Part shown: in pieces, positions 1 to 32,571 of the stretch | How positions within the stretch are numbered: position 1 is the first letter of the stretch | Layout: each line of letters begins with the position of its first letter | Virus record (IMG/VR): IMGVR_UViG_3300035703_000046 | Span: 1 to 64,000 of that record | Origin: a virus | Direction: 5' to 3' (one strand) | DNA: 64,000 nt | The notes under the pieces: model-generated | What the model was told of the DNA's origin: nothing | What the model saw: only the letters and a program-made list of their open reading frames with translations | The model's database searches: none | Position numbers and translations under genes: made by a program

Positions 1-267
1 AAGAAGTGATGATTGGAATTCTGGATTAAATTTGCCATCGGTTGGACCTTTATAAGAAACGCCCAATGGAGAAGTTTTTAAGAATTGCTGAACGAGCTTG
101 ATAGATTTATCATCTTCTGGCATATTTGCATCATGAATATCTAGTGGAACGGTGGACGAATTTTTTAATTCGTTGGGTCTATGGAAATTGCGTTTATCTT
201 GAGAGATGACGGGATTGGTGGGAACGTTAGAATCCCACTGAGTAGCTGCATCTTCAAGAAAGCTCAT
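1..267 (-). CDS. Peptidoglycan-binding-domain protein (continues past window start)
   Basis: Own translation from ATG at 267, which abuts the upstream TGA: MSFLEDAATQWD...IKLVQQFLKTSPLGVSYKGPTDGKFNPEFQSSLL. Resembles PG_binding_1 (VxxLQxxL...Y.GxxDGxF). Confidence 0.6.
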   Translation of the reverse strand, partial: MSFLEDAATQWDSNVPTNPVISQDKRNFHRPNELKNSSTVPLDIHDANMPEDDKSIKLVQQFLKTSPLGVSYKGPTDGKFNPEFQSSLL

Positions 268-1497
268 TCACATTCCTAACATGTCAATATCTTTTTCAAC
301 GTCATCTGAAGGTTCTGTTTTTGAAGATTTATCAGATTTATCAGATGGTTTTTTCGATACTACTGGTTGATCTTTAAATTTGCTAAGATCTGGTTTTTCT
401 AGATATTTTCTATAGAATTCGATATCTTTAACAGCCTGATCTAATTCGTCTTTATAAGATTTTACTTTTTCCATCATAGCTGTCATGAGTTTGATAGCAT
501 CTTCTGTGTCGCTGAGAAGTATTCCTCTACCAACAGTAGAGACCCATTCCCACCATCTTGAAGAAGACTGTTTGCTTTTAAGAATTTTATCTAATCTAGA
601 TGCAACTTGAGGGGAAACTGATAGGAAATTATCTAATAATACTTTTGTTTCTTCTACTTTGCCAATTATTTCTTTGTCTAATTTAGAATTAAAGATTAAT
701 TTTGCTAAATTATGACGGGCAACAGCTTGTTGTTTTTTATTTGTAATACTTTCTACTTCGATGCTTCTTGCTGTAATTTTGGCTATTTCTTCGTCCAAGA
801 AAGAAATATTTCGAAACATAGCTTCAACATTTTTAATATAAGGGGCTAAAATTGGTCCTGTTTCGGGATAATCATTAATTACTTGAGATAATTTTTCTAT
901 CAAAGCAGATAAATCTAATTTAAGATTTTCAGAAGCTGGGAAATATTGAGAAGCAATAGCGGAACCAATTAAAGCAGCGGCTGAAAGACCTAATACAGAT
1001 AGCAATTTTGCTTTCATTCCACCCGGAACGCCTGCTTCTTTGACTAAGGATTCTGTGCAAGAATCTGCTAATTTCATTAATGTTTCTTGGTTTTTGCTAT
1101 CCAAGAAATGGGCAAGTTTAATAGTTTCATTGACGAGATCTTGATGGGCTTTAATATAGCGAGTATTGCTTTGAAGAATTTGTGGATTTTTAAGAGCGAT
1201 ATGAGCCATCATATCTTGGCGTTGTTGTAGATTTTCGACTACGCCATTGAATTTGTCATAAGAAGGACCCATGACAACTGTTTTAGGATGGGCTTGCTCT
1301 AATAATTCTTTAGTAGGAGTTGTTTTAACTCCATAGAAAATTTCAGCTGTAGATAGATCTTTTTTATCTTCTTTGGATGGTTTTTTGTCTTTGGAAGAAG
1401 ATTCTTCTTCATCTTCTTCGGCAGCATTAGAAACTAATCCTTTTTCAAGGGCGATTCTAGTATATTCTTCAAAAACATCACTGTGTCTTGGTTGCAT
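268..1497 (-). CDS. Putative processed head-internal/ejection protein with a transmembrane helix
   Basis: About 155-aa pro-region with shared motifs ending LVKEA|G, followed by hydrophobic LLSVLGLSAAALIGSAIASQYF and coiled coil. Confidence 0.55.
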   Translation of the reverse strand: MQPRHSDVFEEYTRIALEKGLVSNAAEEDEEESSSKDKKPSKEDKKDLSTAEIFYGVKTTPTKELLEQAHPKTVVMGPSYDKFNGVVENLQQRQDMMAHIALKNPQILQSNTRYIKAHQDLVNETIKLAHFLDSKNQETLMKLADSCTESLVKEAGVPGGMKAKLLSVLGLSAAALIGSAIASQYFPASENLKLDLSALIEKLSQVINDYPETGPILAPYIKNVEAMFRNISFLDEEIAKITARSIEVESITNKKQQAVARHNLAKLIFNSKLDKEIIGKVEETKVLLDNFLSVSPQVASRLDKILKSKQSSSRWWEWVSTVGRGILLSDTEDAIKLMTAMMEKVKSYKDELDQAVKDIEFYRKYLEKPDLSKFKDQPVVSKKPSDKSDKSSKTEPSDDVEKDIDMLGM

Positions 1498-2584
1498 TTA
1501 ATTTCCTTAAAAATTCACTGGTGATAAATTTATCTACAACTTTTTTTTCTAATTCACTAATATTTTTAGAAACCGTATATTCTTCTGGAAGTTCTACTTT
1601 GCGAGTGCCGATTCTTCCTGGATCTGAAAGTATAAAATTTGTTACATTTCTAAAATTAGCATCAGAATAGATTCTACTTTCTATATCTGGATATTGGTTT
1701 AATTCTGGATAGTAATGCAAAGCCCAGGCTTTTAGGGTAGCGGGAACTGAACCATTGATTAGGTTGGTGGTCCAAACTAATCCACTGATTGGTTCTTCTT
1801 TTTTAGACCCAAAAAAAGATTTTTTTTCTTTTGTTTTTGGTTCTGGTTCTTTTTCTGATTCTGAAGTTTCTTGAGTTTGGGGAGAATCTTCATCTTTTAG
1901 AGACTCTTTCTTTTTGGGACCAAAGATCATGGCAGCACCGGCTAAAAGTCCAAGGCTTAAAAAGATATTCTTAAACATCCAGAAGACTAATCCTTTTCCA
2001 ACATGCCAGAATTTACTTCTTCCATAGGGTGTTGAAAACAAATCTCTTCCAAAAATTTTTTCTATGAAACCAGTTTTTCCGGAAGAGCCTCCAAATCCAA
2101 AAGCAGAATTTTTAACTAAGTATGCTCTTTTGAGTAGAAAATCAAAAGACTCTTCTGCGGTAACGAATCCATCATCTGCGCTTGCGCCTGGGGCTGAGCC
2201 TGCGGCGGCATCAACTGCGGATTTAATTTCTTGAGATGAAATTGGTTCTTGGGCGTCAATTTTAGGTTTTAGGGCTTTTGCTACTTTGACAGCGACGCCA
2301 GAGAGATCGAAACCTATTTGGCTTAGAGCTAAATAGAATAGTCCTAAAAATGGATTGATTCTAAAGGCTACAGAAGGGGCTAAGAGATTAAGGATGCTGG
2401 TAAAGTAGCCGCCTGGAACTTCGGAAGAATCTTGGAATTGATCTCTAAGCCATTGGGCGGCGGAATTACCTCCAAGCGAATCGAAATAACCAGCTTGTTT
2501 AGTTAAGGAATTAGGTACGAGAATTTTCTCTAATTCCTCAACTAAAAAGTTTTCTCTTAAGAGTTTGATTTCTTCGTGGTTCAT
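1478..2584 (-). CDS. Putative processed virion protein with membrane-spanning segments
   Basis: Start revised to MNHEE (ATGA overlap with upstream stop); LTKQA|GYFD site; hydrophobic segments ILNLLAPSVAFRINPFLGLFYLAL and GLVFWMFKNIFLSLGLLAGAAMIFG. Confidence 0.5.
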   Translation of the reverse strand: MNHEEIKLLRENFLVEELEKILVPNSLTKQAGYFDSLGGNSAAQWLRDQFQDSSEVPGGYFTSILNLLAPSVAFRINPFLGLFYLALSQIGFDLSGVAVKVAKALKPKIDAQEPISSQEIKSAVDAAAGSAPGASADDGFVTAEESFDFLLKRAYLVKNSAFGFGGSSGKTGFIEKIFGRDLFSTPYGRSKFWHVGKGLVFWMFKNIFLSLGLLAGAAMIFGPKKKESLKDEDSPQTQETSESEKEPEPKTKEKKSFFGSKKEEPISGLVWTTNLINGSVPATLKAWALHYYPELNQYPDIESRIYSDANFRNVTNFILSDPGRIGTRKVELPEEYTVSKNISELEKKVVDKFITSEFLRKLNATKTQ

Positions 2585-5500
2585 ATGAATTGAATTCGGC
2601 TTAATTGTCTTCGTATTGCTCTTACCCATTCATTGTGTTGGTAATCTAAAGTTGCAATAAATCTATCGGATTCTTTTTCTGGTAAGCCTCTTTGCTGTAT
2701 ATAAGCTATCGCAGACTTCCTTGCACTTGTCAATTGAGTAAGTAAGCTTGTTAAAAATTGTTTATATGAATTAAGAGAACCGTATTGAGAAATTTCCTCA
2801 AATTGATTTCTATATGCAGGAAGATCTGTAACATTATATTGAGCACCTGTTCGAGGGTCTTTATAAAGATAAGTTTGAGTTGCTTGATCTGTTACAACAG
2901 TTCCTGGAATTAAACGATACTTTACAAAATATTGTAAAACTTGAAATGGTTCCAAGGTATCATTTGGGAAGTACATTGTAGCTGCGTTTTGCGGATTTCC
3001 AGAAACGGTTGCCATTGATAAAATGGATTCTCCTGGCGGAACAGATGCAAACCAGAGATTTCCACCAGGATCTTTTGAATCTAGATAGATATTTCTGGCA
3101 TCAAATGGAACTATTCTTTTTGATCCGGGTGTATAAGTGATTTGGCTTGTTCCGGCGCCAGCTTGACCTTCAACTCCAGCAGCGCCTACTAATCCAGCGC
3201 TTCCCAATCGACCTTCTGGACCCCTTGCACCAGTACCAGCACCAGCACCTAATCCGCCTGCTTGATCGCCCAAATCTCCACCTTCAGCTAAAATATCTTC
3301 TAGAAGCAAGGTGTTCCATTTAGAATTTGGCTCGTTGCTAGGTTCAATTCCAAGACTTTTCATCTTTGCTAAAAAGAGCCGAGATAAATTTCTAACAAAT
3401 TGATTATAAGTTTTAGCCAGATTTTGTTCTTTAATTCTATTGCTTTTACTTATCTTTTCAAAAGATCTTTGATTGAACCAATTAATTAATTGACCCCAAT
3501 GAGCGGCAGTGGCATAACTATTCCACCCAAAAGTAGGAATCTTATCACGTACAAAATTAAAAAAGTTTCTTAAATTGAGCAAATCATTTTTTGTTACAGG
3601 AACATCTCCATCTTGATCTGTGCTTTCTGCAGGATTTAAAGTTTCGCTAATTCTATCAAATATTAAATTCAATCCACCCGGAGCACCGGCTAAACTAAAC
3701 CCTTTGCTTTGTAAAAAGGCAGTTATTAACTCATAATTTTTTTCTGCAGCAGCTTTTATTTTTTCCTGATCATTATTGAAAGCCTTAGCTGGTCCAAGGT
3801 TTTCACTAGGAATAGTTTTTACATATTTTCTTGCTGTTTCTAATGACCTTTTGGTATTTACTCCCCAAACTCCTTCTGGATCCGAAATGGCTCCCCCGGT
3901 TTTACCTATGACCATTACTATAGGTGCATCTGCTTTAGCATTAAGTTCCGGAGCTGTCATTAGATAATCACCTAATTTGCCTAAAGCCCATTGCATATGA
4001 TAAACGGCTTTCTTGGTTTCGGTTAGTTCGACTGGCTGAGTGAGTTCAGCTCCGCCGCCGCCAGCTGGTCTTGCTGGAACCGCTCCACCAGAAGGCTTTC
4101 CTTTGGTAGGAATTATAGATGGTTTTGCCTGGGCTTTCTTAACTAGTTCTAAATCAAATAAAAATGAAGCCTCTTTAATAAATTGAGGAGGGATTTGATC
4201 GTTTAATGCCTTAGTATATTCTGTAATTTTACCAACTAATTCAGAGAAATTTTTAACTTTAAAATATGATTTAATACTATTTTTAAGTTGAAAAAAAGTT
4301 TTACTTTTTACAATAATACTATTAAACTTTTGTAAATTTCCCATTTCTGTATCGATTACCGCAATTGTATCTGCGTCATCTTCTTCATTTAGAGATTTTT
4401 TCCAGCTATTTAAACTTCTATATGTTATTTTAATTGGAGAAGTTAGTTCTGAATATTGATCTTTTGTTAATAATTTTTTATTTTTATCAGTAATTTCTTT
4501 TTCTAGTTCTGAGATTGGAGTTTCAGAATTTCTTTGAATGTTTTTAACTCCAGTTTCAATATTTAATAATATTGAAGTATCTGAAAAAATATTTTTAATT
4601 GTATTATTTTCAAATATTTTTAAATCAAATTTTGTGCTTTCATCTTTAATTTCTGAAAATTTAATTAAACTATCAGAAAAATTATCAAGATTAACAGCAT
4701 TAGAAATTTCTTCTGATCTTGTTTTAATAACAGTTGCAGTATCTGAAATTTTAGAAAAATAAGATTTTAAATATTCAGTTGCTTTAGTTTTATTTTCTGA
4801 TGAAAAGAAAAGTTTTTCTTTTTCTCCAGTCCATTTTACAATTTTATCTGCAAGATCATTTGCAAAAGATGCATTGTCCCTACCTACTGGGGGGACAACT
4901 TGCGACTTAAGTTCAACTGGCAATAATTTTTTAACCGCAGATACTAAATCATCAGTACTTGATTCGTATCTTGCAGCCATTTCTATTAACCTAGTGACCA
5001 AAGTTCCTTTATCACTTCCTAATGTAGTGGTTATATATGCATATTCATTAAATTCATCCGTATTAATTTCCGCCGCTTTTAAATAGAAAGATCGAACAGA
5101 GCCACCTGGTTTGACTCTAGAATCATCAAATAAATTGCTAGAATCAATTGATTTAATATTGGCAATAATGCTATTAGCATTGCCTAAAAATATTTGTTTA
5201 TATTTACTTATAATATTTTTATTAATTTTTTCTATTTTAGTTTTTTCTTCTTCGGTAAGAAACTCTGCTCCTTCAGTTTTTTCTGATAGCTCAGTTTCTA
5301 ATAAACCATCTTCTGCAAATTTTAACAATCCCAATGCTTCAGCAGCAGCCACCACCAAATTATTCATTACAGGGGCTGGAGAGCCAGTGCCAGGCTGATG
5401 CGTTAATGTCTCTAAAATCTTCTGTTGACGATCCATGTTGGTGTGAACTACACCCCAGCCACCTTGAGCATCTACTATCTTTGTGCTCTCTGCGTGAGCG

Positions 5501-5796
5501 GCTTGTTGCAATGCACGGCTCTGCTCATCAATTAAATTAGAAAATGCTAATTGAGCTTTTTTGAAAATATTAAGCTTAACTTCTAAAGACTCAGCTTGTT
5601 CATATAAACCAAGCTCACGCAAGCCTGAAGCTAAATTAACCAAATCCTGCATAAAATTACCAGTAGCAGCATATTTATCAATGCTGGTACTAGCTGATTT
5701 GCTTAGTTTGTCCTCAACAATCCATTCTTTTTGAACGGCTGTAGTATAAAATTCTCTGAGAACAGGGCTGGTGATTAAATTAGCTTCTTTTTTCAT
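2581..5796 (-). CDS. Large (1071 aa) putative head-internal/ejection protein with a PG-binding-like segment
   Basis: About 161-aa pro-region with shared motifs; several KxA sites; AVYHMQWAL...EGVWGVNTKRSL resembles a PG-binding domain; Gly-rich linkers. Confidence 0.5.
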   Translation of the reverse strand: MKKEANLITSPVLREFYTTAVQKEWIVEDKLSKSASTSIDKYAATGNFMQDLVNLASGLRELGLYEQAESLEVKLNIFKKAQLAFSNLIDEQSRALQQAAHAESTKIVDAQGGWGVVHTNMDRQQKILETLTHQPGTGSPAPVMNNLVVAAAEALGLLKFAEDGLLETELSEKTEGAEFLTEEEKTKIEKINKNIISKYKQIFLGNANSIIANIKSIDSSNLFDDSRVKPGGSVRSFYLKAAEINTDEFNEYAYITTTLGSDKGTLVTRLIEMAARYESSTDDLVSAVKKLLPVELKSQVVPPVGRDNASFANDLADKIVKWTGEKEKLFFSSENKTKATEYLKSYFSKISDTATVIKTRSEEISNAVNLDNFSDSLIKFSEIKDESTKFDLKIFENNTIKNIFSDTSILLNIETGVKNIQRNSETPISELEKEITDKNKKLLTKDQYSELTSPIKITYRSLNSWKKSLNEEDDADTIAVIDTEMGNLQKFNSIIVKSKTFFQLKNSIKSYFKVKNFSELVGKITEYTKALNDQIPPQFIKEASFLFDLELVKKAQAKPSIIPTKGKPSGGAVPARPAGGGGAELTQPVELTETKKAVYHMQWALGKLGDYLMTAPELNAKADAPIVMVIGKTGGAISDPEGVWGVNTKRSLETARKYVKTIPSENLGPAKAFNNDQEKIKAAAEKNYELITAFLQSKGFSLAGAPGGLNLIFDRISETLNPAESTDQDGDVPVTKNDLLNLRNFFNFVRDKIPTFGWNSYATAAHWGQLINWFNQRSFEKISKSNRIKEQNLAKTYNQFVRNLSRLFLAKMKSLGIEPSNEPNSKWNTLLLEDILAEGGDLGDQAGGLGAGAGTGARGPEGRLGSAGLVGAAGVEGQAGAGTSQITYTPGSKRIVPFDARNIYLDSKDPGGNLWFASVPPGESILSMATVSGNPQNAATMYFPNDTLEPFQVLQYFVKYRLIPGTVVTDQATQTYLYKDPRTGAQYNVTDLPAYRNQFEEISQYGSLNSYKQFLTSLLTQLTSARKSAIAYIQQRGLPEKESDRFIATLDYQHNEWVRAIRRQLSRIQFI

Positions 5797-5803
5797 CTAT
5801 TCC

Positions 5804-6127
5804 TCAAAAAGTTGAATCATCTAGATCTAACATCATTACTGCATTAACAAATTTGCTTCCTAGTTTTTTTGCTAACCCAGGGTTTTCAGAAATTTGTTTT
5901 TGCATATCTAAAAATGCTTTTTTTAAAATTTCATTTTGATTAATGCTTAATTCAAAATTAGCAAAAGATTCAAGGGCATTGGCTCTTTCTTCAAAAGAAC
6001 GTTTTTCCCTTTTAATTTGCTCATCTGTCAATACTTTTTCTTTAGCTTCTCTTTCTAATTCTATAGATAAATAATTTCTAAAGACTTCAGATGACATTAA
6101 TGCATTTAAATCTTGGTCGTTTCCCAT
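5804..6127 (-). CDS. Hypothetical head-associated protein
   Basis: SD AAGGA; N-terminal SSEVFRNYLSIEL matches module A of the neighbouring proteins. Confidence 0.6.
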   Translation of the reverse strand: MGNDQDLNALMSSEVFRNYLSIELEREAKEKVLTDEQIKREKRSFEERANALESFANFELSINQNEILKKAFLDMQKQISENPGLAKKLGSKFVNAVMMLDLDDSTF

Positions 6128-6164
6128 TATATTCCTTTATGTCAAGTATTATATCTTAATATGG

Positions 6165-6527
6165 CTAAATTAACTCAATAATTAAACTATTTTCTTTAAT
6201 TTCAGAAACGAAACCAAGCAACAAAGAATCTTCATAAATTTTCTTGTTGGTGAATTTTCCGAACTGACTGCAATATAATTTGTCTTTAATTTCAAATTTA
6301 TCTGGCTCAATCATGGTTGTTTCAAAAACCATAGCTTCGTACCAAATAGGAATTAACCCAAATTCATCAAGATAATCTCCTATGACTCCAAATGGTTTTT
6401 CTCCGTTGCAAATTTTAGCAACTCCATCATGCAAAGAGACAATCATTCCAGGATCTGGAAAATATAAAGCATCTTTGAAAAGCATTTTAATAGGCTTTTC
6501 AGTTAAAGAATCTATAATTTTAAACAT
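6165..6527 (-). CDS. Putative capsid decoration/cement-like protein (short paralog)
   Basis: PGMIVSL..NGEKPFGVIGD..IWY..FETT..LYCSQFGKFT..LGFV aligns with the upstream gene product. Confidence 0.45.
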   Translation of the reverse strand: MFKIIDSLTEKPIKMLFKDALYFPDPGMIVSLHDGVAKICNGEKPFGVIGDYLDEFGLIPIWYEAMVFETTMIEPDKFEIKDKLYCSQFGKFTNKKIYEDSLLLGFVSEIKENSLIIELI

Positions 6528-6528
6528 A

Positions 6529-7224
6529 TCAGAAATATGTCTTAAATTCTAAGAAGCTATAAATGGCTGATGGTGGAGCGGTAACAATTCCTACAGGAGG
6601 ATACGTTTCATCAATTCTAGAAGTTGATAATTTACCATCAATGCCGCAAAATAAAATACTATTCAAAGCATAAGAGGCAGAAGTATCAAATTGATCGGTA
6701 GCAGCAATAATTTTACTGGTCCAAACTGTAATTCTACCTGTACCTTCGGTAGAATTTTCCCCTGGAATTCCTGGAACTTGATAGCTGTATCGAACTACAA
6801 CCCTAACAGAATCAAATACACCACTGTTTGTAGAACTGTAATTTAAAGGAGTTCCAGCAGGAACAGTAATAACACCATTCCTAGCATTAAGGACTACCAA
6901 TTCCGGAGTACATACAAATGAATTAGGGTAAATGTTAGCATTCTCTAATTCATATTTTAAATCAATAGGAGTAACGTAAGTAGAGCCTGATAATGTGGGA
7001 ATAGGACAAGTAATAATACAAACTTCATCTACTTTAGCAGTAGAGAAGCTAGTTTTCTTAACGTCATCAATAATTCCAATTGGGCTTAATCCATCGGAGA
7101 CACCGCAAACAACTTGATTGCCATAAACTTTTAGCTGGGCAATCATTCCGGGTTCAAATTCGGAATTAGGATCGACCAGCCAAGAATATGGAAGGCTGTT
7201 ATTGGTGTGTAGGATTCTTAACAT
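6529..7224 (-). CDS. Putative capsid decoration/cement-like protein with an inserted beta domain
   Basis: Start revised to MLRILHTN (7224); PGMIAQL..DGLSPIGIIDD...ITVW..TDQFD..LFCGIDGKLS..VGIV is a beta-clip-like decoration pattern. Confidence 0.5.
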   Translation of the reverse strand: MLRILHTNNSLPYSWLVDPNSEFEPGMIAQLKVYGNQVVCGVSDGLSPIGIIDDVKKTSFSTAKVDEVCIITCPIPTLSGSTYVTPIDLKYELENANIYPNSFVCTPELVVLNARNGVITVPAGTPLNYSSTNSGVFDSVRVVVRYSYQVPGIPGENSTEGTGRITVWTSKIIAATDQFDTSASYALNSILFCGIDGKLSTSRIDETYPPVGIVTAPPSAIYSFLEFKTYF

Positions 7225-7252
7225 GTTTAAATATATATCAGTGAAAATTAAA

Positions 7253-7900
7253 TCAATCTTTTTTGAAAGAATAATGACGTTTGCAAATAGCTTTTTCTTT
7301 ATGGGCTCCCTTGGGGGCTTTCTTCCAGCCTTTGCATTCTTTGGACATATCTTCGTCATCGGCATCCCATGCATCCATGCAATCATAAGCTAATCCGCAA
7401 TCGGCAGCGGCATCGGCGCAGTATCTACTACAAAAAGCTTTATCTTTAACCGTATTAACTGGTTCGCCGCAATAAGCGCAAGTTTTTGCCATTAAATCAT
7501 CGTGAGCTTCGTGGACAACAATATCTGAAGCATCGTTGCCATCAAACATCCATCCTTTTTCTTTTAAGTTTTTTACAGCTTGTTTTGAGCTTTTAGGGAT
7601 AGATTTATCTTTAATTTTTTTGCCAGAAGAATCGGCGAGCATTACGTCGTTTTTGTCACCCTCATCATCTTCCTCGCCTTCCTCATCTTGATTCTCACCT
7701 AAGGAAGATAACATCTTATCAAGCATTGAGGCTTCATCTTCTAAACCGACTTCATCTAGGAGGGTAGCGGACAATTCAATTAATTTGATTGCTTTTTTTA
7801 AATGTGTATCTTTAGAAATTTCTTCTTGAGAAGCAATTATAGAAAGATTATATTCTACGCTGTCAATAAAATCTGATTCTGCAAATTTTTTAATAAACAT
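7253..7900 (-). CDS. Acidic head-associated protein with a metal-binding Cys cluster
   Basis: MFIKKFA|E; tag LSATLLDEVGLEDEASMLD; CAYC...FCSRYCAD. Confidence 0.55.
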   Translation of the reverse strand: MFIKKFAESDFIDSVEYNLSIIASQEEISKDTHLKKAIKLIELSATLLDEVGLEDEASMLDKMLSSLGENQDEEGEEDDEGDKNDVMLADSSGKKIKDKSIPKSSKQAVKNLKEKGWMFDGNDASDIVVHEAHDDLMAKTCAYCGEPVNTVKDKAFCSRYCADAAADCGLAYDCMDAWDADDEDMSKECKGWKKAPKGAHKEKAICKRHYSFKKD

Positions 7901-7908
7901 ATTAATCC

Positions 7909-8100
7909 TTAGAATTTAGAAGATAGCTTTTCCATTAGTTTTGTTAATTTTTTAGAATATTTTGGTTTATCAGCCAAATCAAAACATTTAGCGGCTTCAT
8001 TTAAGCAGCGTAAAGCAACTGTTAGTTTTAAATCAGAAGACTCTAGTTGATGTTCTGAGTTTAATTTTTCCATCATTTCTAAAGCTAGATCATCTTTCAT
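7909..8100 (-). CDS. Small protein consisting largely of the shared helical tag
   Basis: Start revised to MKDDL (ATGA overlap, SD GGAGG); LNEAAKCFDLADKPKYSKKL. Confidence 0.6.
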   Translation of the reverse strand: MKDDLALEMMEKLNSEHQLESSDLKLTVALRCLNEAAKCFDLADKPKYSKKLTKLMEKLSSKF

Positions 8101-9101
8101 ACTTCGTCCTCCCAAGCAAATCCAGTATCTAAAGCATCAAGTGCATGATGCATGTCTTTCAAATCTTCATCTTCTTCGCCATCTTCTTCTTCATCCATTT
8201 CTTCGAACTCATCCATCTCTTCGTCCATTTCAGCATCTTCTTCTTTTAATTCTTCAAGCTCCTCATCTTCAGAGGATTCCTCTAACAAAGACTCAATTTC
8301 ATGCATACAATCAAGAAGTTCCATAACTTCTTCTTCGTCAAAACCTTCTTCATCTTCTAAAATTTCATCAAGTTGCTCTTTGCAGTCTTTAAGTAATACT
8401 AAGAGTTCTTCTCTGGACATATCTTCTTCATCAGAGAAATCTTCGCCGTTATCTTCTTGAGTTTCTTCTACTGCCTCTTCGGATTCTTTCAACTCTTCTT
8501 CGTCATCTTTATCTTCATCGTCTGCTGCAAAATCATCAAGAGAGACCATAAACCCTCTTAAACTTGGATCTTTTTCATATCTATCCTTCCAATAACTAGG
8601 GGATTCGGGCTCGATCATTGAAAGACTTGCTTCTGCACTTTCTTTTGCAGGCGCAGATTTAGAAGGATTTTTTTGAAGTGATCTGAAAAAATCTTCTAAA
8701 TCATCTGCATTAAAAGAGTCCATTTCAGATAATATTTCATCTGTTAATTCTACAGATTCCTCAGCCTCTTTTAATAATTTATTAGATGCAATTAGTAATA
8801 AAGAAGCCGCCTTATCAAATCCTTGAGCATCTAATTCTTCAGAAGCTTCAAGAATCATATTAAACATTTCATTTGCAGATTTTGATTTCATATCATTGCA
8901 GCTAGAGCAATCATTGGAGCATTTCGTTCCAGCTTTTCTGCACTTGCAACCTTGCCCACAATCGCAATCTGCTCCGCATTCAGAACAGCAAGATGCTTTA
9001 ACTTTTTTGGCTTTCTTGGCGGCAAATTTGCCAAATCCAAAAGATGGACTAGACATTAAAGAATCCATTTCAGCAGCAACTAAATTACTAATTTTTTTCA
9101 T
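8097..9101 (-). CDS. Metallothionein-like Cys cluster plus very acidic protein (putative prohead core protein)
   Basis: 10 Cys in 31 aa; tag EASEELDAQGFDKAASLL; E/D-rich C-terminal half. Confidence 0.55.
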   Translation of the reverse strand: MKKISNLVAAEMDSLMSSPSFGFGKFAAKKAKKVKASCCSECGADCDCGQGCKCRKAGTKCSNDCSSCNDMKSKSANEMFNMILEASEELDAQGFDKAASLLLIASNKLLKEAEESVELTDEILSEMDSFNADDLEDFFRSLQKNPSKSAPAKESAEASLSMIEPESPSYWKDRYEKDPSLRGFMVSLDDFAADDEDKDDEEELKESEEAVEETQEDNGEDFSDEEDMSREELLVLLKDCKEQLDEILEDEEGFDEEEVMELLDCMHEIESLLEESSEDEELEELKEEDAEMDEEMDEFEEMDEEEDGEEDEDLKDMHHALDALDTGFAWEDEV

Positions 9102-9109
9102 CTTTATCC

Positions 9110-9385
9110 CTATTTAACTAATCCGTAGAGTTGACCAACATGTTTAACTTCTTCATCTGAAGAAGCTTCAATTAATGAAATTGCTGCTGCTTTTAAAGCT
9201 GTAGCAGTTTTTGACATACCTCTTTTATTTAACTCGATTGCCATTTCTGCAATTTTAGCAACGGCTAAAGAAGTTGAATTATTTTTTTCTTCTAAAATAG
9301 AGGCTGTCTTAATGGAAGCAGTTTTAACAGATTCGCTTGCTAAAATGCCATTCATTTCTATATCTAAATTAAACTCTGGTTTCAT
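9110..9385 (-). CDS. Small head-associated protein (KTAS repeats plus helical tag)
   Basis: VKTASIKTAS; IAEMAIELNKRGMSKTATAL. Confidence 0.6.
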   Translation of the reverse strand: MKPEFNLDIEMNGILASESVKTASIKTASILEEKNNSTSLAVAKIAEMAIELNKRGMSKTATALKAAAISLIEASSDEEVKHVGQLYGLVK

Positions 9386-9413
9386 TCATTATCCTATAGT
9401 CGAAAAAATAAGA

Positions 9414-9448
9414 AGGGCAAACTCTATATCTATGCTAGAGTTTGCCCT
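9414..9448 (-). terminator. Rho-independent terminator after the protease/scaffold gene
   Basis: 13-bp perfect stem AGGGCAAACTCTA/TAGAGTTTGCCCT followed by a T-rich tract on the minus strand. Confidence 0.8.
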
Positions 9449-9477
9449 AATTATTTAATATTTCTTACTAACGTTTA

Positions 9478-12400
9478 TCAATATTTGCGGTTAGCAAAAG
9501 CTGCTGCAAATTCTGTGATAAGGTCGTTTGATTCTGTTGAAGCAGTTGCAATGAGTTCTTCGCTCATTAAACCAATTTGTGGCATTGCATAAGATGCGTT
9601 GCGTGTCATTGGTGTGCGTTCAACGTGTTTCTTCATAGAGTCAAAGCCTGCGTCGTTGAAGCTCATGAGTTCATCAACTTGTTCTTTGATAGCATGTTTG
9701 TCACGACCGATGAGACCTTTGGCTGCCATTTCGTTAGCAAGGTCATAGGCGCGAGCAATTTTAACGCGGAAAGTTTCCATGTTTTCTGCTTTTTTGGCTT
9801 GAGCATGTTCTGAAGTTAATTCAGCTGCAAATTCTTTGCTGGCTTTATCTTTGGCTTGACCATAGAAGTCTTTCCAGTATTTAACTGCAGCTGCATCGAG
9901 ACCTGCTTTGACGAGTTGATCAACTTCAGATGCTTCAATGCGACCGGCTGTAACAAGTTTCTGAATATCTTCTGCTGCTTTCTTGGTTTTTGCAGAAACT
10001 TCTTTTGTTGCAACTTCATGAACTGCTGAAGCAACTTCTTCGAGAGTTTCAACTTTAGCGCCTTCGCCTTTCATGCCTGAAAGTATTGGACCGCCTTTAC
10101 CGTGTGCATCTTGAAGAATTTTGCTGAATTGCATTGCTTTGGCAGCTTGTTTTGCACGATATGCTGCGCGACCTTCTTTGGTGGTAAGATCATCTGAGGC
10201 GAGTGCTGCTTTGGCATCTTCTGCTTTTTGGAATTCCATAGTGTTTCCTGATTTATCTGTTACTTTAACGGGACCATGATGAACGTCATCGGCTGCATCG
10301 TCTGAATCCATCATTGCAAGGATATCATCAACTGAAAGTTCATCGCCTTTATCCATGTCCATCATATGATGCATGTCTTTTTTGCTCATGTGGTCCTTTG
10401 CTGCTCCGTCATCAGCTAATGATGCTGGGCTATATGGTTTTGGTTTTGCTGCTTGTGGTTTGCCTGCAACTGCTCCTGAAAGACCTGGAGTAGAGGAGGC
10501 AGTTCCACTAACAGCTGCTTCGCCAGGAGCAGGGGCTTTTCCACCAGATGTAAAGGCAGTTCCTCTTTCTTTAGAGCTTAAAAGAAGTTTGCCTTTAAGA
10601 GCTTCAGATAGTTGTTTTAACTCTGCTGGAGTTAATTTAGCAGAAAGTGTATTTACAACTGGTTTTGGTAATTCTTGAGACATTTCAACAAATGGATCTT
10701 GTGCAACTTTAACCATGCGAACTTCTTGTTTTGCTTGTTTGACAAGTACTTCTGTTGAAGAAGCATATTTGCTAAATGCGCTCATAAGAGTGTATGCATC
10801 GGCAATCACTTCGCGTGCTGCTGCTTTGCTTTCTGCAACTGTATCTAGTACTTCAGCAGAAGCGTTCTTTACAAGAACTTGTCTTGCAAGTCTAAGTTCA
10901 TCAATAACGCCTGCTAATTTAACAGATGTTTCTTTCATTGCTGAAAGAATTGTTCTGCCAAGTTTTTTCTGCATTGCCATGAGAGAAGCTGTTGTTGGAG
11001 ATAATGCAGGTGATTGTGCAAGACCTTCAAGTTCAGGAGTTGGTGATTCTGCAGCTTTTTCAGTGAGAAGTGCTTCTACACCTTTGCGAAGATCTGCGTG
11101 GAGTTCTTCGAGTTTGTCAAGTAATCCAGGAAGGTCTTTAGCTGGGTCTCCAGATACGCCTGCTGCTGCTGGTTTTTCTGCTGGCTCTTCGCCCATTTCA
11201 GGAAGTTCTGGCATTTCGGGCATAGCTAAATCTGCTGGAGCAGGAGCTGCTGGAGCGGCTGGTGCTGCGGGAGCAGGTGCAGCCTGAGCGGATTTGTACA
11301 TGCTGGCAACTTTTTCTAGACCATTGCTGCGGATTTTTGCAATTAATGAACGACCAAAGCCTTCATTTGCAACGCTGTCATAAAGTGCAACTGTGCGACC
11401 GGCAGTGATTTCATTAACACTTGCTGAGAATACAAGTTTTTTGTCTGCAAATACCTCCCAACGTGAATTGGCAAGATCGTCATTGCCATTTGCAGAAGCT
11501 GCCTTTAAGAATCTAGCGGTGAGTTTTGCACGAGAAAGCATTTGTTTCTTTTCTAAGTCTTTGGGGAAAAGACCGTCAACATCGCCTGTATCTGGGAATG
11601 GAGGAGCGCCTACCATTTGTTTATCCTGAGTGTTGCGGATTTTATCTGCATCTTCTTTTGGATATGTTTGTGGTTCGTTAGCTCCGCCGCCACCTTGGAA
11701 GTAAGCTTGTTTTTTAGCAAGATTTGCTTTTGCGGCTTCTAATGCTGCTTGACGACGAATTGAGCGCATTTCTTCTTCTGCTAAGCGTTGTAATCTGCGT
11801 TTGCGAGCTTCTTCGGTTTCGCCGAAAGATTCATAACCAGGGTGCATTCCATCAACTGGACCGGTGTTCATTTGACCGACCATTTGTTTGTCTTGGGTGT
11901 TGCGAACCTTTTCTGCATCTTCTTTTGGATATGTTTGTGGCTCGTTCATTCCGCCGCCACCTTGAAAATAAGCCTTTTTCTGAGTTGTCATTTGTTCATC
12001 CTTATTAAAACTGGAAAGTTTGTTAATTCTTTCAAATATTGTGTCTAATTTATCAGAAATGTTTTTTAGTGCATATTCTGAAGATTTATCAGAAGCTTCT
12101 TTTCCTAATTGATTAGGTGAATTTTCTGATGGTTTGTCTTTTACTTCTTTCAATAATTCTTCAATTTGTGCTTTTAATGCACCTAATTGCTCTGTAGCTT
12201 CTTCTAAAGAAGATACTAATCCTTCCATCTTGCCAGAAGTTTCTGGTTTTGATGTCTCTGATTCAGATGATTCTGACTCAGAGGCTTCGGGATCTTTTTT
12301 CAAGAATTCTTGTTCTTTTGCTTCAACATATTTAGCAATGCTATTAGCAGCTGCTATAATTGTTTTAATTTTTGCCTTTGGATCGGCACCATTTACAACA

Positions 12401-13092
12401 ATGGATAATTCAATTGGGTTTAAATCCAAATTGACTTCACCATAACATGATTTATTTTTCATATGGTTACAGAAATCGGATTCTGTACGAGCCACATTGC
12501 CACAATCATAGCAAACTGCTTTACCAACACCTGTTCCCATGGAAACAGAAGCTGCATAACCAGTTGAAACTTTTCGTGCTAAATCTGGATAGTTCTTTTT
12601 ATCCAAAGCGCACAATGCAACTACTCTTTTTAATTTGTGATCATAATAAGTATCGACAATTAATCCTCGAATCATGTCAACAGAAGAGCTTTTATGATCT
12701 AAGCAAAGAGGTTTGCCAACCCATTTTTTATGAGCAGAAATAAGCTCTTGGGCGGGGAAAATATCAGAATTATTATTTTTATATGGTCTTATACTTGGGT
12801 CGTTGCTTTTCCAAATAACTCCATCGCCTTTTTTCTCCCACCAAACTTTAACTGGCTCGCCAGAAGCTGTAACTTTTAAGCTGCCATCTTCATTGATAGC
12901 TGAATGCTCAGCGGCGTGCATCATTACTGCGCTAAAATAAAGAAAATCATCTCCTTTTGGAGCAATAATTTTTAATTCTTTGGCAATTTTTTCAAATTTA
13001 TTTTGAATCTCTGGATCGGATAAAACGCTTTCAACGTCTTGAATATCCGATGCTGTAATTGAAATAGATTCACCAATTTTTACTAACGACAT
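9478..13092 (-). CDS. Prohead maturation protease fused to scaffolding protein
   Basis: N-terminal about 250 aa has GKPLCLDH (His), SVSMG (Ser), a CxxC..CxH knuckle and ELSIVVNGADPKAKI, typical of HK97/assemblin-fold head proteases; long Ala/Pro-rich coiled-coil scaffold-like C-terminus. Confidence 0.75.
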   Translation of the reverse strand: MSLVKIGESISITASDIQDVESVLSDPEIQNKFEKIAKELKIIAPKGDDFLYFSAVMMHAAEHSAINEDGSLKVTASGEPVKVWWEKKGDGVIWKSNDPSIRPYKNNNSDIFPAQELISAHKKWVGKPLCLDHKSSSVDMIRGLIVDTYYDHKLKRVVALCALDKKNYPDLARKVSTGYAASVSMGTGVGKAVCYDCGNVARTESDFCNHMKNKSCYGEVNLDLNPIELSIVVNGADPKAKIKTIIAAANSIAKYVEAKEQEFLKKDPEASESESSESETSKPETSGKMEGLVSSLEEATEQLGALKAQIEELLKEVKDKPSENSPNQLGKEASDKSSEYALKNISDKLDTIFERINKLSSFNKDEQMTTQKKAYFQGGGGMNEPQTYPKEDAEKVRNTQDKQMVGQMNTGPVDGMHPGYESFGETEEARKRRLQRLAEEEMRSIRRQAALEAAKANLAKKQAYFQGGGGANEPQTYPKEDADKIRNTQDKQMVGAPPFPDTGDVDGLFPKDLEKKQMLSRAKLTARFLKAASANGNDDLANSRWEVFADKKLVFSASVNEITAGRTVALYDSVANEGFGRSLIAKIRSNGLEKVASMYKSAQAAPAPAAPAAPAAPAPADLAMPEMPELPEMGEEPAEKPAAAGVSGDPAKDLPGLLDKLEELHADLRKGVEALLTEKAAESPTPELEGLAQSPALSPTTASLMAMQKKLGRTILSAMKETSVKLAGVIDELRLARQVLVKNASAEVLDTVAESKAAAREVIADAYTLMSAFSKYASSTEVLVKQAKQEVRMVKVAQDPFVEMSQELPKPVVNTLSAKLTPAELKQLSEALKGKLLLSSKERGTAFTSGGKAPAPGEAAVSGTASSTPGLSGAVAGKPQAAKPKPYSPASLADDGAAKDHMSKKDMHHMMDMDKGDELSVDDILAMMDSDDAADDVHHGPVKVTDKSGNTMEFQKAEDAKAALASDDLTTKEGRAAYRAKQAAKAMQFSKILQDAHGKGGPILSGMKGEGAKVETLEEVASAVHEVATKEVSAKTKKAAEDIQKLVTAGRIEASEVDQLVKAGLDAAAVKYWKDFYGQAKDKASKEFAAELTSEHAQAKKAENMETFRVKIARAYDLANEMAAKGLIGRDKHAIKEQVDELMSFNDAGFDSMKKHVERTPMTRNASYAMPQIGLMSEELIATASTESNDLITEFAAAFANRKY
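11609..11976 (-). repeat. Two-copy ~35-codon repeat inside the scaffold (K[KQ]AYFQGGGGxNEPQTYPKEDAxKxRNTQDKQMVG)
   Basis: Copies at about 11878-11976 and 11609-11712, near-identical in protein with synonymous DNA differences. Confidence 0.9.
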
Positions 13093-30181: not shown

Positions 30182-30952
30182 TTATTTTTTAGAATTAAAG
30201 CTCATTGGAACATTAACATAGGCATTATATGCTGTTTGAGATTGCAAAGAAATATCTCCACCAGGAACTTTATTTCCTTTTAAAGTAGTGAATCCATGTT
30301 TATAATCATAAGTTTTTTTATCTAAAGAGCATTGATAAACATCATCAGAAACTCTGATTAGTTGGTGCCCAGGATGATCAATGCAAGATCTTGTTTTTAA
30401 AGGAGCCTCTAAAGGCTTATATTCTTTTATATTTTTGTCTACTACTTTTGCAATTTCGTCAGCTTTAAAAGAAACTTTAACTTGCTCTGAATTTTCGGAT
30501 TTGTTATTTAAATTTTTTTTTATTTCAGAAATTTTTGCTTCGTAAGCTCTTTTTTCTTCTTCTCTTGCTTCTGGAACTGCGAAAGTTAAAAGAACTTGAT
30601 CAAGGACAGAAGCCTGTCTGCGAAGAAGGTTATCGCTTGATTTGGAAAACTCTTCTGCTAAAGCGGCAACGGCTTCCAAATCTTTAGGAGTAACTTCTTC
30701 TTTTTCTTCTACTTCGCCCAATTCTTCTTTTTTAGATTTGCAGAATTCTTCAAATTCTTTTCGCTCTTCTTCTCCGAGCTTGTATGAATTAGATTTGCAA
30801 ATATTATCAATAGCTGTTGCGCAACCAATAAAACACCCGGCTACAGTTTGTAGCATATCGGGACTTACTTGGTCTGCCAAATCGAGAACTTCATGATCTC
30901 GATTTAAAAACATGCAACGTAACTCTTCAAGTTTTTTTAATAGTTCTAACAT
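30182..30952 (-). CDS. Hypothetical protein with a C-terminal C/H metal site
   Basis: Start revised to MLELL (TGATG overlap); CIDHPGH...YQC; tag-like LAEEFSKS..QASVLDQVL. Confidence 0.65.
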   Translation of the reverse strand: MLELLKKLEELRCMFLNRDHEVLDLADQVSPDMLQTVAGCFIGCATAIDNICKSNSYKLGEEERKEFEEFCKSKKEELGEVEEKEEVTPKDLEAVAALAEEFSKSSDNLLRRQASVLDQVLLTFAVPEAREEEKRAYEAKISEIKKNLNNKSENSEQVKVSFKADEIAKVVDKNIKEYKPLEAPLKTRSCIDHPGHQLIRVSDDVYQCSLDKKTYDYKHGFTTLKGNKVPGGDISLQSQTAYNAYVNVPMSFNSKK

Positions 30953-32571
30953 CAGCAGTTCCAATATACTTTTGAGGTTACAAAGTGAGCTGATTCTGTA
31001 CCGTCTTCCATTCCTTTACGGTGAAGCGGGCGGCACTGACCAAATTTATCTTGGTACACTTTGCCTACTGGAAGACCGGTATGGCTGCAAATTAAACTTG
31101 AACTATTTGCAGTCTTTATCGTATGTGAGCATCCAGAAGATGCCTGCTTATGAAGATTAAATTCACCTTTAAGGGCTTGTTTATAAATGGCAAATGCCAT
31201 GTTGTAGAAGTGAGCGTCTCCAGCTTCACGTAGAATATGAAGAGCATCTTCTGCTTTTTCAAAGTTCTCTTCTTGTAATGCTGAGGCAAGACTTAAAAAT
31301 AACTCTTGTGGTTTTAAATCATAAAGAGGAGAAGCCATTGCCATAGCGGAAAGATCATTTGTTTCATTGATAATTTCAGAAATTCCCTCTGATGAGAATT
31401 CTTTAATTGCATCTTCTGCTACAACAGTTCTTGGCAATAATACGTTTGTTTGAGAGATTTTAACGGGTACTTTAAATCCTCTGCGACCATCAATAGAGGC
31501 GGCATAAACGATTCCATCTTTGTCAGATGAAGCTACTCCTACCTGAGCCTTATATCCAAACGATGCTAGTTTTCTAACAATCATTTCTCTGCCAGTGGCT
31601 ACCACTTTTTTACCATGATATAATTCAGCTTCACCAGCCTTGGAAGATAATCTCTCTCCAAGAGATTTGTACTCTTCTGGGACCTCGAATTGAGGCATAG
31701 CAACATCGGAAACTTCATTTCCTACATTGGGATTGTACAAAAGAACCCCTGGGGCGTCTAAAGAAACGCTATCGCCAGAAGCCGTTTTCATTCTAAATAA
31801 AGCTAACTCTACTTCGGATAATGGCTCGGCGGTTTTAGAAACAAAATTTAATACTTGTTCCGCATTAACCTGCATTAATTTACCTGCGTTTTTAACAAGG
31901 TAATCATCTAATAGAGATGCCGTTAGTTCAACAATTCCTTCTGGAGTAACAAAGGAAGATGGAATTGCAGGCTCACTGTCTACAATCTCTACTGGTAATA
32001 GGACTGAAGTTTCGCCTCGTGGAGTTTCAAAAGAAGCTCTACAAACAAGCCAAGTATCGTTTCCAGCAACCACTTGTGCGAGCTTTGGATTTGCACCAAC
32101 AGAGCGTAAAGCGTATGCGGTATTTCTTTCGGCAGAACTTGCTGCTGTCTTAGAGTAAGTTTTAACTACAGCATTTTTGCCATCGTTGAATAATGAAGAT
32201 AATGTTTCAACTAAATTTGAATCTACATCTTTATGAGCAATAGATAATAAATCTTCACCTTCTCTGAAATCTTTTTTAATTTCTGGAGCTTTTTCCTGAG
32301 CGCCAAGCTCTTCTGCAAAGTAAGAAGCAAACTTGTTATTATTGCTATATAAAGTGTTGTATATTTTCTTTAATTCAAAACGAGAAATCATTGGTTGGGA
32401 GCTAGCTTTTTTATTTAAAAAGTTGCACATCCCAACGATTGTGGCGTCATATGGAAAAACCTCTGCAAGTTTTTCAGCTTTTTTAGCTAAAACACCAGTG
32501 AAGAAGCTTTCTTGTTCTTTGACTGCTTCTGCCGCTTTTAAAATAACGTTATTTAATTGATTAAAATCCAT
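30952..32571 (-). CDS. Putative head protein with an internally duplicated alpha/beta domain and many KxA sites
   Basis: Two related repeats; KKA|S, KTA|A, KNA|G, KTA|S, KQA|S; C-terminal C..C.H..C. Confidence 0.55.
   Translation of the reverse strand: MDFNQLNNVILKAAEAVKEQESFFTGVLAKKAEKLAEVFPYDATIVGMCNFLNKKASSQPMISRFELKKIYNTLYSNNNKFASYFAEELGAQEKAPEIKKDFREGEDLLSIAHKDVDSNLVETLSSLFNDGKNAVVKTYSKTAASSAERNTAYALRSVGANPKLAQVVAGNDTWLVCRASFETPRGETSVLLPVEIVDSEPAIPSSFVTPEGIVELTASLLDDYLVKNAGKLMQVNAEQVLNFVSKTAEPLSEVELALFRMKTASGDSVSLDAPGVLLYNPNVGNEVSDVAMPQFEVPEEYKSLGERLSSKAGEAELYHGKKVVATGREMIVRKLASFGYKAQVGVASSDKDGIVYAASIDGRRGFKVPVKISQTNVLLPRTVVAEDAIKEFSSEGISEIINETNDLSAMAMASPLYDLKPQELFLSLASALQEENFEKAEDALHILREAGDAHFYNMAFAIYKQALKGEFNLHKQASSGCSHTIKTANSSSLICSHTGLPVGKVYQDKFGQCRPLHRKGMEDGTESAHFVTSKVYWNC

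Follow-up and report, generated by a model that had tools for sequence, protein, structure and literature searches.

Two large proteins encoded between the protease-scaffold and capsid genes of an uncultured phage begin with N-terminal leaders that are built from the same three sequence modules, A, B and C, in different orders, and one of these modules, B, recurs in the scaffold itself. The leaders belong to ORFs 268 and 2581 of the window, the 64,000-nucleotide stretch of DNA analysed here, which is part of a 300–435 kb phage whose portal and capsid proteins show distant kinship with those of Bacillus phage G. Conserved K-x-A tripeptides are placed at the module boundaries, where they fit a prohead-protease site. 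Proteins from the interval between the protease-scaffold and capsid genes are likely to be packaged within the head, and we consider the chances somewhat better than even that the two leaders are cleavable modular assembly propeptides that load proteins into the forming capsid. Coordinates of the features are collected in Table 1.

Table 1. Features of the protease-scaffold region discussed in the text, with positions in the window.
Feature	Position	Strand	Remarks
ORF 268	268..1497	-	409 aa; leader aa 1-155, module order A-B-C
Module A of ORF 268	1426..1488	-	aa 4-24; short amphipathic helix
Module B of ORF 268	1180..1353	-	aa 49-106, core aa 62-106
Module C of ORF 268	1048..1161	-	aa 113-150; helical hairpin tag
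K153-E-A155 of ORF 268	1033..1041	-	candidate protease site closing the leader
Hydrophobic helix of ORF 268	943..1002	-	aa 166-185, after K153-E-A155
ORF 2581	2581..5796	-	1071 aa; leader aa 1-161, module order A-C-B
Module A of ORF 2581	5716..5781	-	aa 6-27
K33-S-A35 of ORF 2581	5692..5700	-	conserved site after module A
Module C of ORF 2581	5548..5664	-	aa 45-83
Module B of ORF 2581	5386..5544	-	aa 85-137
K159-F-A161 of ORF 2581	5314..5322	-	candidate protease site closing the leader
Module A of ORF 5804	6041..6103	-	aa 9-29; ORF 5804-6127, 107 aa
C-like helical tag in ORF 7253-7900	7691..7819	-	96.9% against the tag of ORF 9110 (hhalign)
C-like helical tag in ORF 7909-8115	7918..8103	-	68-aa ORF; same tag as ORF 7253-7900
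C-like helical tag in ORF 8097-9101	8754..8924	-	acidic, Cys-rich ORF; jackhmmer from ORF 9110, 2.6e-9
C-like helical tag in ORF 9110-9385	9146..9280	-	91-aa ORF
Protease-scaffold fusion	9478..13092	-	1204 aa; protease domain ~aa 1-250
Module B of scaffold	9973..10158	-	aa 979-1040; flanked by K981-Q-A983 and K1038-A-A1040

A preliminary description of this DNA had reported shared modules in ORFs 268, 2581 and 5804 and in the scaffold; the strings it quoted were all located on the minus strand, and the modules are present at the positions it named. Single-sequence BLASTP does not relate the leaders significantly to each other (best E 0.028) or, pairwise, to the scaffold, so family profiles were needed, and these were drawn from 80 related loci. 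The profile-profile comparison of leaders with scaffold that had been proposed as a check was run with hhalign and is significant: the two leader families (A2 and A3) match at 97.3% (E 1.8e-11), ORF-2581 leaders match scaffold C-termini at 95.8% (E 7.4e-9), and ORF-268 leaders match scaffold C-termini more weakly (64%, E 6e-5). Module-only profiles give 86–97% for B, 92–96% for A and 28% for C of ORF 268 against C of ORF 2581, with every cross-module control comparison scoring below 6%. When the A and B profiles are compared with a six-frame translation of the whole window, matches are confined to the expected ORFs. Neither A nor C is found elsewhere in the scaffold or window at E < 1, with one exception, a 47-aa frame at 40222–40362 that the A profile matches at E 0.15. 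ORFs 268 and 2581 have no match in Pfam, PHROG or NCBIfam, a Gly-rich stretch of ORF 2581 giving a weak PHROG tail-fibre match (E 0.0045), and none among GenBank phages by tblastn; the leaders have none in the ESM Atlas.

Module B spans about 50 aa with the motif AHP...G-x-VE...P-x-G (LY...AHP...G-V-VE-N...Q...P in ORF 268), and its predicted fold is a helix, two strands and a helix. It links the ORF 268 leader, the ORF 2581 leader and the scaffold (hhalign 96–97%, E 1e-9 to 2e-11), the link between ORF 268 and the scaffold being the weaker one (64–86%). Its His, Gly and Glu positions are nearly invariant. A B-module HMM identifies 154 domains at 74 loci, all in three syntenic contexts and none in other ORFs, and K-x-A follows B directly in all contexts, as P-T-G-K-x-A on the cargo proteins and as P-K-V-R-K-x-A on scaffolds. 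A library search with module B returned 840 clusters at E ≤ 1e-10. The module occurs in 1846 protein clusters, every one of them unnamed and of metagenomic origin. Neither Pfam nor PHROG has a family for it, and it is not in phage G or GenBank phages. In a sister clade, the large protein starts with A and carries B close to its C-terminus, and the scaffold is without B. The preliminary description had called the shared motif scaffold-derived; the sharing is upheld by the profiles, whereas the direction is unsupported, as the scaffold B copies group as a clade of their own and the sister clade carries B on the large protein and not on the scaffold.

Members of the ORF 268, 2581 and 5804 families carry module A at their N-termini, as does the large protein of the sister clade. 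Its presence in the three window ORFs is supported at 92–96% by hhalign profiles (ORF 268 against ORF 2581, 95.8%; against ORF 5804, 95.3%), and in the ORF 5804 family it is followed by K/R-E-A. Evidence for module C is weaker than that for A and B (28–82%). As had been noted, both large proteins have QDLVN ahead of C; their relatedness in this module is weak (28%). The tag of ORF 9110 scores 56% against C of ORF 268 and 82% against C of ORF 2581, and C-like tags are present in other ORFs (Table 1). A candidate C-like tag in the scaffold C-terminal domain (stretch 'YDLANEMAAKGLI') was rejected at 3.5% by hhalign. The shuffled order, A-B-C in ORF 268 versus A-C-B in ORF 2581, and the K-x-A at the end of both leaders (aa 155 and aa 161) are as the earlier reading had them; the order proves to be conserved within each family, and the K-x-A positions are conserved too. 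The modular rearrangement that it proposed is also borne out, and extends to tandem B copies and to C-terminal B in the sister clade. Judging from these arrangements, the modules act as portable units.

Leaders and mature parts were compared using the relative L007 as reference: the ORF 268 leader is 68% identical and its mature part 24%, and the corresponding values for ORF 2581 are 64% and 25%. Fast-evolving mature parts follow both leaders, in ORF 268 after the hydrophobic helix. Matches of phmmer to ORF 2581 relatives concentrate in aa 1–170, and the ORF 2581 counterpart is split into two separate genes in several relatives. A peptidoglycan-binding domain considered for ORF 2581 and its relatives had no Pfam support (best E 0.17). 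Nearly all members of the ORF 268 family have K-x-A or K-x-G at aa 141–165. In ORF 2581, K79-K-A81 closes module C, with K-x-A kept in 26 of 28 sequences, and hydrophobic-x-K-x-A-(Q/E/D) occupies the alignment position of the leader end in most family members. For the ORF 268 leader, AF2 predicts a helix at aa 7–18 in module A, a short helix followed by two strands and another helix in module B, and helices at aa 107–134 and 138–155 in the module C region (pLDDT ~88). This model is of modest confidence overall (pLDDT 66), with B poorly defined and no compact A-B-C domain; that of the scaffold tail, also modest (pLDDT 72), leaves B poorly defined and not packed on the scaffold domain. Foldseek found no match in the PDB. 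The neighbouring ORF 1478 has hydrophobic segments and a short leader that closes with K-x-A.

The protease domain of the fusion matches a PHROG head maturation protease (phrog_18299, 1.7e-12), phrog_2774 (2.9e-17) and NF045541 (2.9e-6), carries a His/Ser pair in nearly invariant D-H-K-S and S-M-G motifs, and is conserved in both clades, with and without scaffold B. Its family profile found no relative in Pfam or the PDB, and its cleavage specificity is thus not predictable. The remainder of the fusion is long, Ala/Glu/Lys-rich and contains ten conserved K-x-A sites; the gene position between portal and capsid, the composition and a conserved helical C-terminal domain point to an assembly scaffold. 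Among the conserved a-x-b tripeptides of the head-module alignments, K-x-A leads with 20 sites, against 12 for the next and 4 for A-x-K, and it still ranks first or second when the scaffold is excluded. Conserved copies follow modules A, C and B, stand at the leader ends and on both sides of scaffold B, and occur near the N-termini of the capsid protein (~aa 24–26) and portal (~aa 62–64). Raw K-x-A counts are not enriched in structural ORFs relative to other window ORFs (1.36 versus 1.32), so that the case stands on conserved position only. At least one conserved K-x-A lies within the conserved capsid core (~aa 64–66), where cleavage is unlikely.

Under the propeptide reading, ORFs 268 and 2581 would start with assembly propeptides composed of three portable modules, namely an N-terminal amphipathic helix (A), a ~50-aa unit (B) and a helical hairpin tag (C). 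The modules would most likely dock the large proteins, putative cargo on the two grounds of gene position and hydrophobic segments, into the procapsid scaffold core. As module B is also in the scaffold, cargo and scaffold probably share a binding partner; a direct contact between scaffold B and cargo B cannot operate in the sister clade, whose scaffold is without B. After assembly, hydrophobic-x-K-x-A sites around each module are probably cut by the prohead protease with which the scaffold polyprotein begins. Such cutting would take the scaffold apart and free the fast-evolving mature cargo parts, one of which would open with a membrane-type helix; the cargo may also have a role in ejection. 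The better conservation of the leaders than of the mature parts (64–68% versus 24–25%, L007) counts for this reading, as does the prohead protease domain within the scaffold polyprotein. A bolder and decidedly more tentative proposal, which we regard as possible but doubtful, is that A, B and C form a combinatorial capsid-interior 'address code' of a large clade of uncultured phages (300–435 kb), in which each module docks independently and is cut out at K-x-A by a protease whose specificity is new, and B is a scaffold mimic that lets cargo fill scaffold binding sites.

Several other explanations can be weighed against these data. It is scarcely credible that the resemblances arose by chance among helical Lys/Ala/Glu-rich sequences: the pairwise BLASTP results are not significant and module C is weak between the large proteins (28%), but profile-profile scores of 92–97% stand against cross-module controls below 6%, HMM matches are restricted to the expected syntenic proteins at 74 loci, and 840 library clusters are reached at E ≤ 1e-10. 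For modules A and B, chance is refuted by the profile comparisons and the B-HMM distribution. The N-terminal region might instead be a permanent virion-attachment domain, retained to anchor fast-evolving fibres or inner-capsid proteins, with K-x-A having a structural role. Fibre-like proteins typically join a conserved N-terminus to a variable rest of the chain, and ORF 2581 has its weak PHROG tail-fibre match (E 0.0045), yet this appears unlikely given that module B is also in the scaffold, which is normally degraded, that the modules sit at either protein end depending on the clade, that K-x-A falls precisely between modules and recurs in the scaffold and the capsid and portal N-termini, and that the genes are placed between the scaffold and capsid genes.

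Rather than serving in co-assembly, module B could offer the prohead protease a docking element (exosite) and mark nearby K-x-A of the scaffold and two substrates for cutting, with targeting left to A and C. K-x-A directly after B in all contexts, the nearly invariant His, Gly and Glu, and the retention of B where the scaffold lacks it, alongside a protease conserved in both clades, would all agree with such a role; conserved K-x-A in capsid and portal proteins that have no B, and the many other scaffold sites with no B nearby, make it improbable. A leader acting mainly as an intramolecular chaperone or inhibitor, which keeps membrane-active mature parts soluble and harmless to the cell making them and shares modules through descent from a common prodomain and not for targeting, would account for the hydrophobic helix immediately after the ORF 268 leader and for ORF 1478, with its hydrophobic segments and a short leader that closes with K-x-A. 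It gives no account of C tags on small acidic proteins, of module A on ORF 5804, which is small and soluble, or of the scaffold's module B, and we judge it very unlikely.

To our knowledge, recruitment of internal or ejected proteins in very large phage heads is known experimentally only for T4 and, in part, phiKZ-like phages. The present locus offers a sequence-defined and testable candidate recruitment system in a lineage related to phage G, with three portable modules, one of them in the scaffold, and a candidate protease motif, K-x-A, that is conserved in the scaffold, capsid and portal proteins as well as in the cargo. On its own, module B defines a family, so far without a name, that exceeds 1800 protein clusters. 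If the propeptide reading is true, it would provide annotation rules for head proteins of huge uncultured phages, and capsid targeting could be multi-part and independent of place in the protein; if the 'address code' is true, foreign proteins fitted with the modules could be loaded into such capsids.

Parts of this arrangement have counterparts in known systems. Phages lambda (C/Nu3) and P2 (gpO) have protease-scaffold polyproteins or nested genes, and here too an N-terminal head protease and a scaffold come from one gene beside the capsid gene; unlike them, the fusion has 1204 aa and ten conserved K-x-A sites, and module B is also on other head-region proteins. Encapsulin cargo-loading peptides are short, single and uncleaved, and bind the HK97-fold shell directly from either terminus. 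The putative loading described here is similarly portable among unrelated cargo and possible at either terminus, but a protease and scaffold are present, and no sequence similarity was found between encapsulin peptides and the modules.

In T4, the internal proteins IPI-III and Alt carry capsid targeting sequences (CTS) that the protease gp21 removes (PMC9026906, PMC5694885). The CTS are single pieces of 10–19 residues (PMC9026906) that terminate in a site for the protease of the phage itself and are believed to attach to the scaffold core (PMC9026906, PMC5694885), and Alt is trimmed at both ends (PMC9026906). The leaders resemble CTS as N-terminal tags on otherwise unrelated, fast-evolving and putatively head-internal proteins, and two-end trimming of Alt has a parallel in the sister clade, where A is N-terminal and B C-terminal. 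Unlike CTS, they are 155–161 residues long with three separable modules of variable order and number; their candidate site is K-x-A where that of T4 is L/I-x-E, and the protease has no detectable kinship with gp21. SPN3US propeptides are 111–254 aa long and cut several times, and the cleavage motif in SPN3US and phiKZ is A-x-E or S/A/G-x-E, with a gp21-like protease (PMC10052503). The ORF 268 and 2581 leaders fit this length range (155 and 161 aa to the conserved K-x-A), belong to putative head-internal proteins of a very large phage, and may also be cut more than once, with K33, K79 and K159 as candidates in ORF 2581. The candidate sites differ in being K-x-A and not A-x-E, and no sequence relation connects ORFs 268 and 2581 with the SPN3US/phiKZ inner-body and paralog families (no PF12699-type Pfam match). 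A targeting role is suspected for both sets of propeptides, and a module shared with the scaffold protein, as seen here, has not been described for SPN3US/phiKZ. The system is most likely a longer, multi-part version of T4 capsid targeting, and a further form of the theme to which giant-phage propeptides also belong.

Two large head-region proteins, ORF 2581 and ORF 268 (minus-strand ORFs named, like those below, by start coordinate), carry N-terminal leaders built from short modules: an amphipathic helix (A), a ~50-residue segment of the pattern AHP...G-x-VE...P-x-G (B) and a helical tag (C). Module A recurs in ORF 5804 and module B in the protease-scaffold fusion. The strings quoted for these modules in the preliminary description are all found where it had placed them.

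Positions of the modules and of the K-x-A sites that end the leaders
Protein	Module A	Module B	Module C	Leader-end site
ORF 268	aa 4-24	aa 62-106	aa 113-150	K153-E-A155
ORF 2581	aa 6-27	aa 85-137	aa 45-83	K159-F-A161
ORF 5804	aa 9-29	none	none	none
Scaffold, ORF 9478-13092 (-)	none	aa 979-1040 (window 9973-10158)	none	none

The genes of window positions 1-21,300 are all on the minus strand, in the order gpA-type large terminase, portal, several unknowns, the 1204-aa protein whose residues 1 to ~215 match PHROG head-maturation proteases, small acidic/Cys-rich proteins, a conserved 230-aa protein, and ORFs 6165, 5804, 2581, 1478 and 268. The remaining genes include DnaE, PhoH, topoisomerase and SbcCD-like genes, and the portal's top match in cultured phages, at 35% identity, is gp14 of Bacillus phage G. 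The window comes from a 91-kb IMG/VR record, a fragment estimated to be 21% complete; relatives reach 301-435 kb. Positions 1-267 belong to a gene downstream of ORF 268 that is broken by the start of the record. Relatives have their capsid gene after the ORF 268 homologue (as at L004 12782-13792); here it is expected past the left end of the window and is absent from this record. A 285-aa ORF, 6529-7386 (-), overlaps ORF 7253-7900, and its relatives begin at an internal Met (MLRI..), which gives a ~231-aa protein (6529-7224) that is the best conserved of the region, at 45-55% identity across 80 loci. By eye it shares an N-terminal P-G-M-I motif with ORF 6165, and neither has a Pfam or PHROG match. 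In one relative (L010:10684-13416), inserted opposite-strand genes separate the 230-aa protein from the ORF 5804 homologue; among them are a Cys-repeat protein of 481 aa and an ORF of 330 aa that by eye resembles IMP dehydrogenase/GMP reductase. ORF 2581 is a single 1071-aa gene in the window, unlike its homologue in L004:5431-9005, L027, L021/L022, L033 and L024, which is split into two adjacent genes (~550-605 and 577-625 aa). Pfam gives no support for a peptidoglycan-binding domain in ORF 2581 and its relatives (best E 0.17), and hence none for the peptidoglycan-binding part of an ejectosome reading of 1-5796.

Because single-sequence BLASTP supports none of the leader or scaffold matches, relatives were gathered: one locus syntenic through ORF 268 itself and 80 more anchored on the 230-aa protein, with the ORFs of all loci grouped by phmmer. 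Both leaders are strikingly conserved within their families, whereas the regions that follow are not; compared with relative L007, identity is 64% in the leader and 25% in the mature part of ORF 2581, and 68% and 24% in those of ORF 268. An HMM of the ORF 2581 leaders matches members of the ORF 268 family at module B, with E-values as low as 9e-10 (6.7e-7 for the ORF 268 of the window), and also the homologous position of 14 scaffolds, the best at 7.8e-7. When whole-leader alignments are compared by hhalign, the two leader families match at 97.3% (E 1.8e-11), with A and B aligned and module C of ORF 2581 treated as an insertion; the scaffold tails match the ORF 2581 leaders at 95.8% (E 7.4e-9) and the ORF 268 leaders at 64%. 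Profiles of single modules give, for B, 96.4% (E 1e-9) between the two leaders, 96.6% (E 7e-10) between ORF 2581 and scaffold and 86% (E 5e-6) between ORF 268 and scaffold. For A they give 95.8% (E 7.4e-9) between ORFs 268 and 2581, 95.3% (E 2.3e-8) between 268 and 5804 and 92.3% (E 5.6e-7) between 2581 and 5804. These comparisons rule out a chance resemblance in the case of A and B, with eight cross-module controls at 0.1-5.8%, not significant. The C tags of the two leaders match at 28% (E 6.4e-4); through small tagged proteins upstream, C7253 matches C9110 at 96.9%, and C9110 matches the tags of ORFs 2581 and 268 at 82% and 56%. By these profile statistics, modules A and B are genuine and common to several proteins, B to both leaders and the scaffold, and C is a looser helical-hairpin motif.

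A clean HMM of module B finds 154 domains in 74 loci, all within the expected syntenic proteins. The near clade (~45 loci, including the window) has three copies, in the scaffold and the homologues of ORFs 2581 and 268; three of its genomes (301-435 kb) contain exactly three apiece, and some ORF 2581 homologues have two (L004, L011). The sister clade (~28 loci) has a single B, 45-70 residues from the C-terminus of a syntenic 650-1040-aa protein whose N-terminus bears an A-like motif and then K-x-A, sometimes with a C tag after B. No B is detectable in sister-clade scaffolds, as confirmed genome-wide in two nearly complete genomes (335 and 317 kb). Searches of phage G, and of GenBank phages by tblastn, find no module B. 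A profile of 117 modules, compared with 1.84 billion proteins, retrieves 1846 cluster representatives at E <= 1e-3, of which 840 reach E <= 1e-10; those looked up are all metagenomic and unnamed. Among the best 150, the architectures are C-B (54), A-C-B (43), A-B-C (29), B near the C-terminus (6), scaffold-like (4) and tandem B (A-C-B-B, A-C-B-B-B or A-B-B-C; 6).

In a tree of B modules, the 32 scaffold copies all group together (support 0.98), as do all 19 C-terminal copies (0.96), and the ORF 268 copies make up a third clade, so the rearrangements are old and stable. The preliminary description had read the leaders as cleavable and modularly rearranged, with a scaffold-derived co-assembly motif in them. 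Its observation is confirmed and extended and its interpretation partly supported: the shared modules, differing order and K-x-A ends hold, but nothing marks the scaffold copy, which sits in a clade of its own, as the source of B.

The protease has no relative in profile searches of Pfam and PDB, and its specificity therefore cannot be inferred by homology. Conserved a-x-b sites, defined as tripeptides kept in at least 60% of sequences, were counted in alignments of 17 head-module families. K-x-A ranks first of 400 patterns with 20 conserved sites, followed by P-x-G with 12; the reverse, A-x-K, has 4. With the scaffold left out, K-x-A is still first or second at all three thresholds. Its context is two hydrophobic residues, K-x-A, then Q/S/E/A. 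A conserved site ends both leaders, as had been described; others follow modules A and C in the ORF 2581 leader and, as P-T-G-K-x-A in most family members, module B. The scaffold's B is flanked on both sides (K981, K1038), both Gly-rich scaffold repeats are preceded by a conserved site, and further sites lie near the N-termini of the capsid protein (~aa 24-26), portal (~aa 62-64) and ORF 1478 (aa 44-46). A distribution of this kind would be expected of a prohead-protease site. There are caveats: structural ORFs show no enrichment in raw counts of K-x-A, and one of the conserved sites is within the capsid core.

K-x-A is strongly enriched in two unknown ORFs, 30952-32571 (-) with 15 observed against 4.4 expected (p = 6e-5) and 32587-33063 (-) with 4 against 0.8 (p = 0.009). 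Both lie outside the head module and may encode additional substrates of the protease. Scaffold residues 365-500 (window 11590-12000) contain two ~35-aa units, YFQGGGG..NEPQTYPKEDA..RNTQDKQMVG, ~90 aa apart and each with K-x-A directly before it; phage G gp21, the likely scaffold there, has a similar Y-P-x-E-D motif. Two relatives (L065:2243-3022 and L027:2937-3716) carry Hint/intein domains (Pfam Hom_end_hint, 4.4e-11) as insertions within the protease domain of their protease-scaffold gene.

The best reading of these findings, which are comparative sequence evidence throughout, is that the leaders are capsid-targeting propeptides in a multi-module form. Through the modules, head-internal proteins would dock into the core of the procapsid; later, the scaffold polyprotein would cut at K-x-A with its protease domain, dismantling the scaffold and freeing the mature proteins. 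Since the sister clade keeps B on a large protein and has scaffolds lacking it, B probably binds a partner that both clades have, namely the capsid protein, portal, protease or 230-aa protein; direct contact between scaffold B and cargo B is less likely. A serious rival reading gives B a role in docking the protease.

Two other readings concern the leader as a whole. It is less likely to be a permanent anchoring domain, and a chaperone-like prodomain is likewise less likely. AF2 with the family alignment (pLDDT 66, pTM 0.30) models the ORF 268 leader with A as a helix, B as a short helix, two short strands and a helix, and C as a confident helical hairpin (pLDDT ~88); a hydrophobic helix follows at aa 166-185. 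The model contains no compact A-B-C domain, which agrees with the independent docking units of the propeptide reading. In the model of the scaffold tail (pLDDT 72), the helical C-terminal domain is confident and B is poorly defined, and Foldseek finds no match in PDB.

The proposed logic, a targeting tag later trimmed by the protease, is the same as that established for T4, in which capsid-targeting sequences are 10-19 aa and Alt is trimmed at both ends (PMC9026906, PMC5694885). The proposal also agrees with SPN3US, whose propeptides are long and cut at several points (PMC10052503). The leaders differ from both systems in their module structure, their candidate cleavage motif and the sharing of a module with the scaffold.
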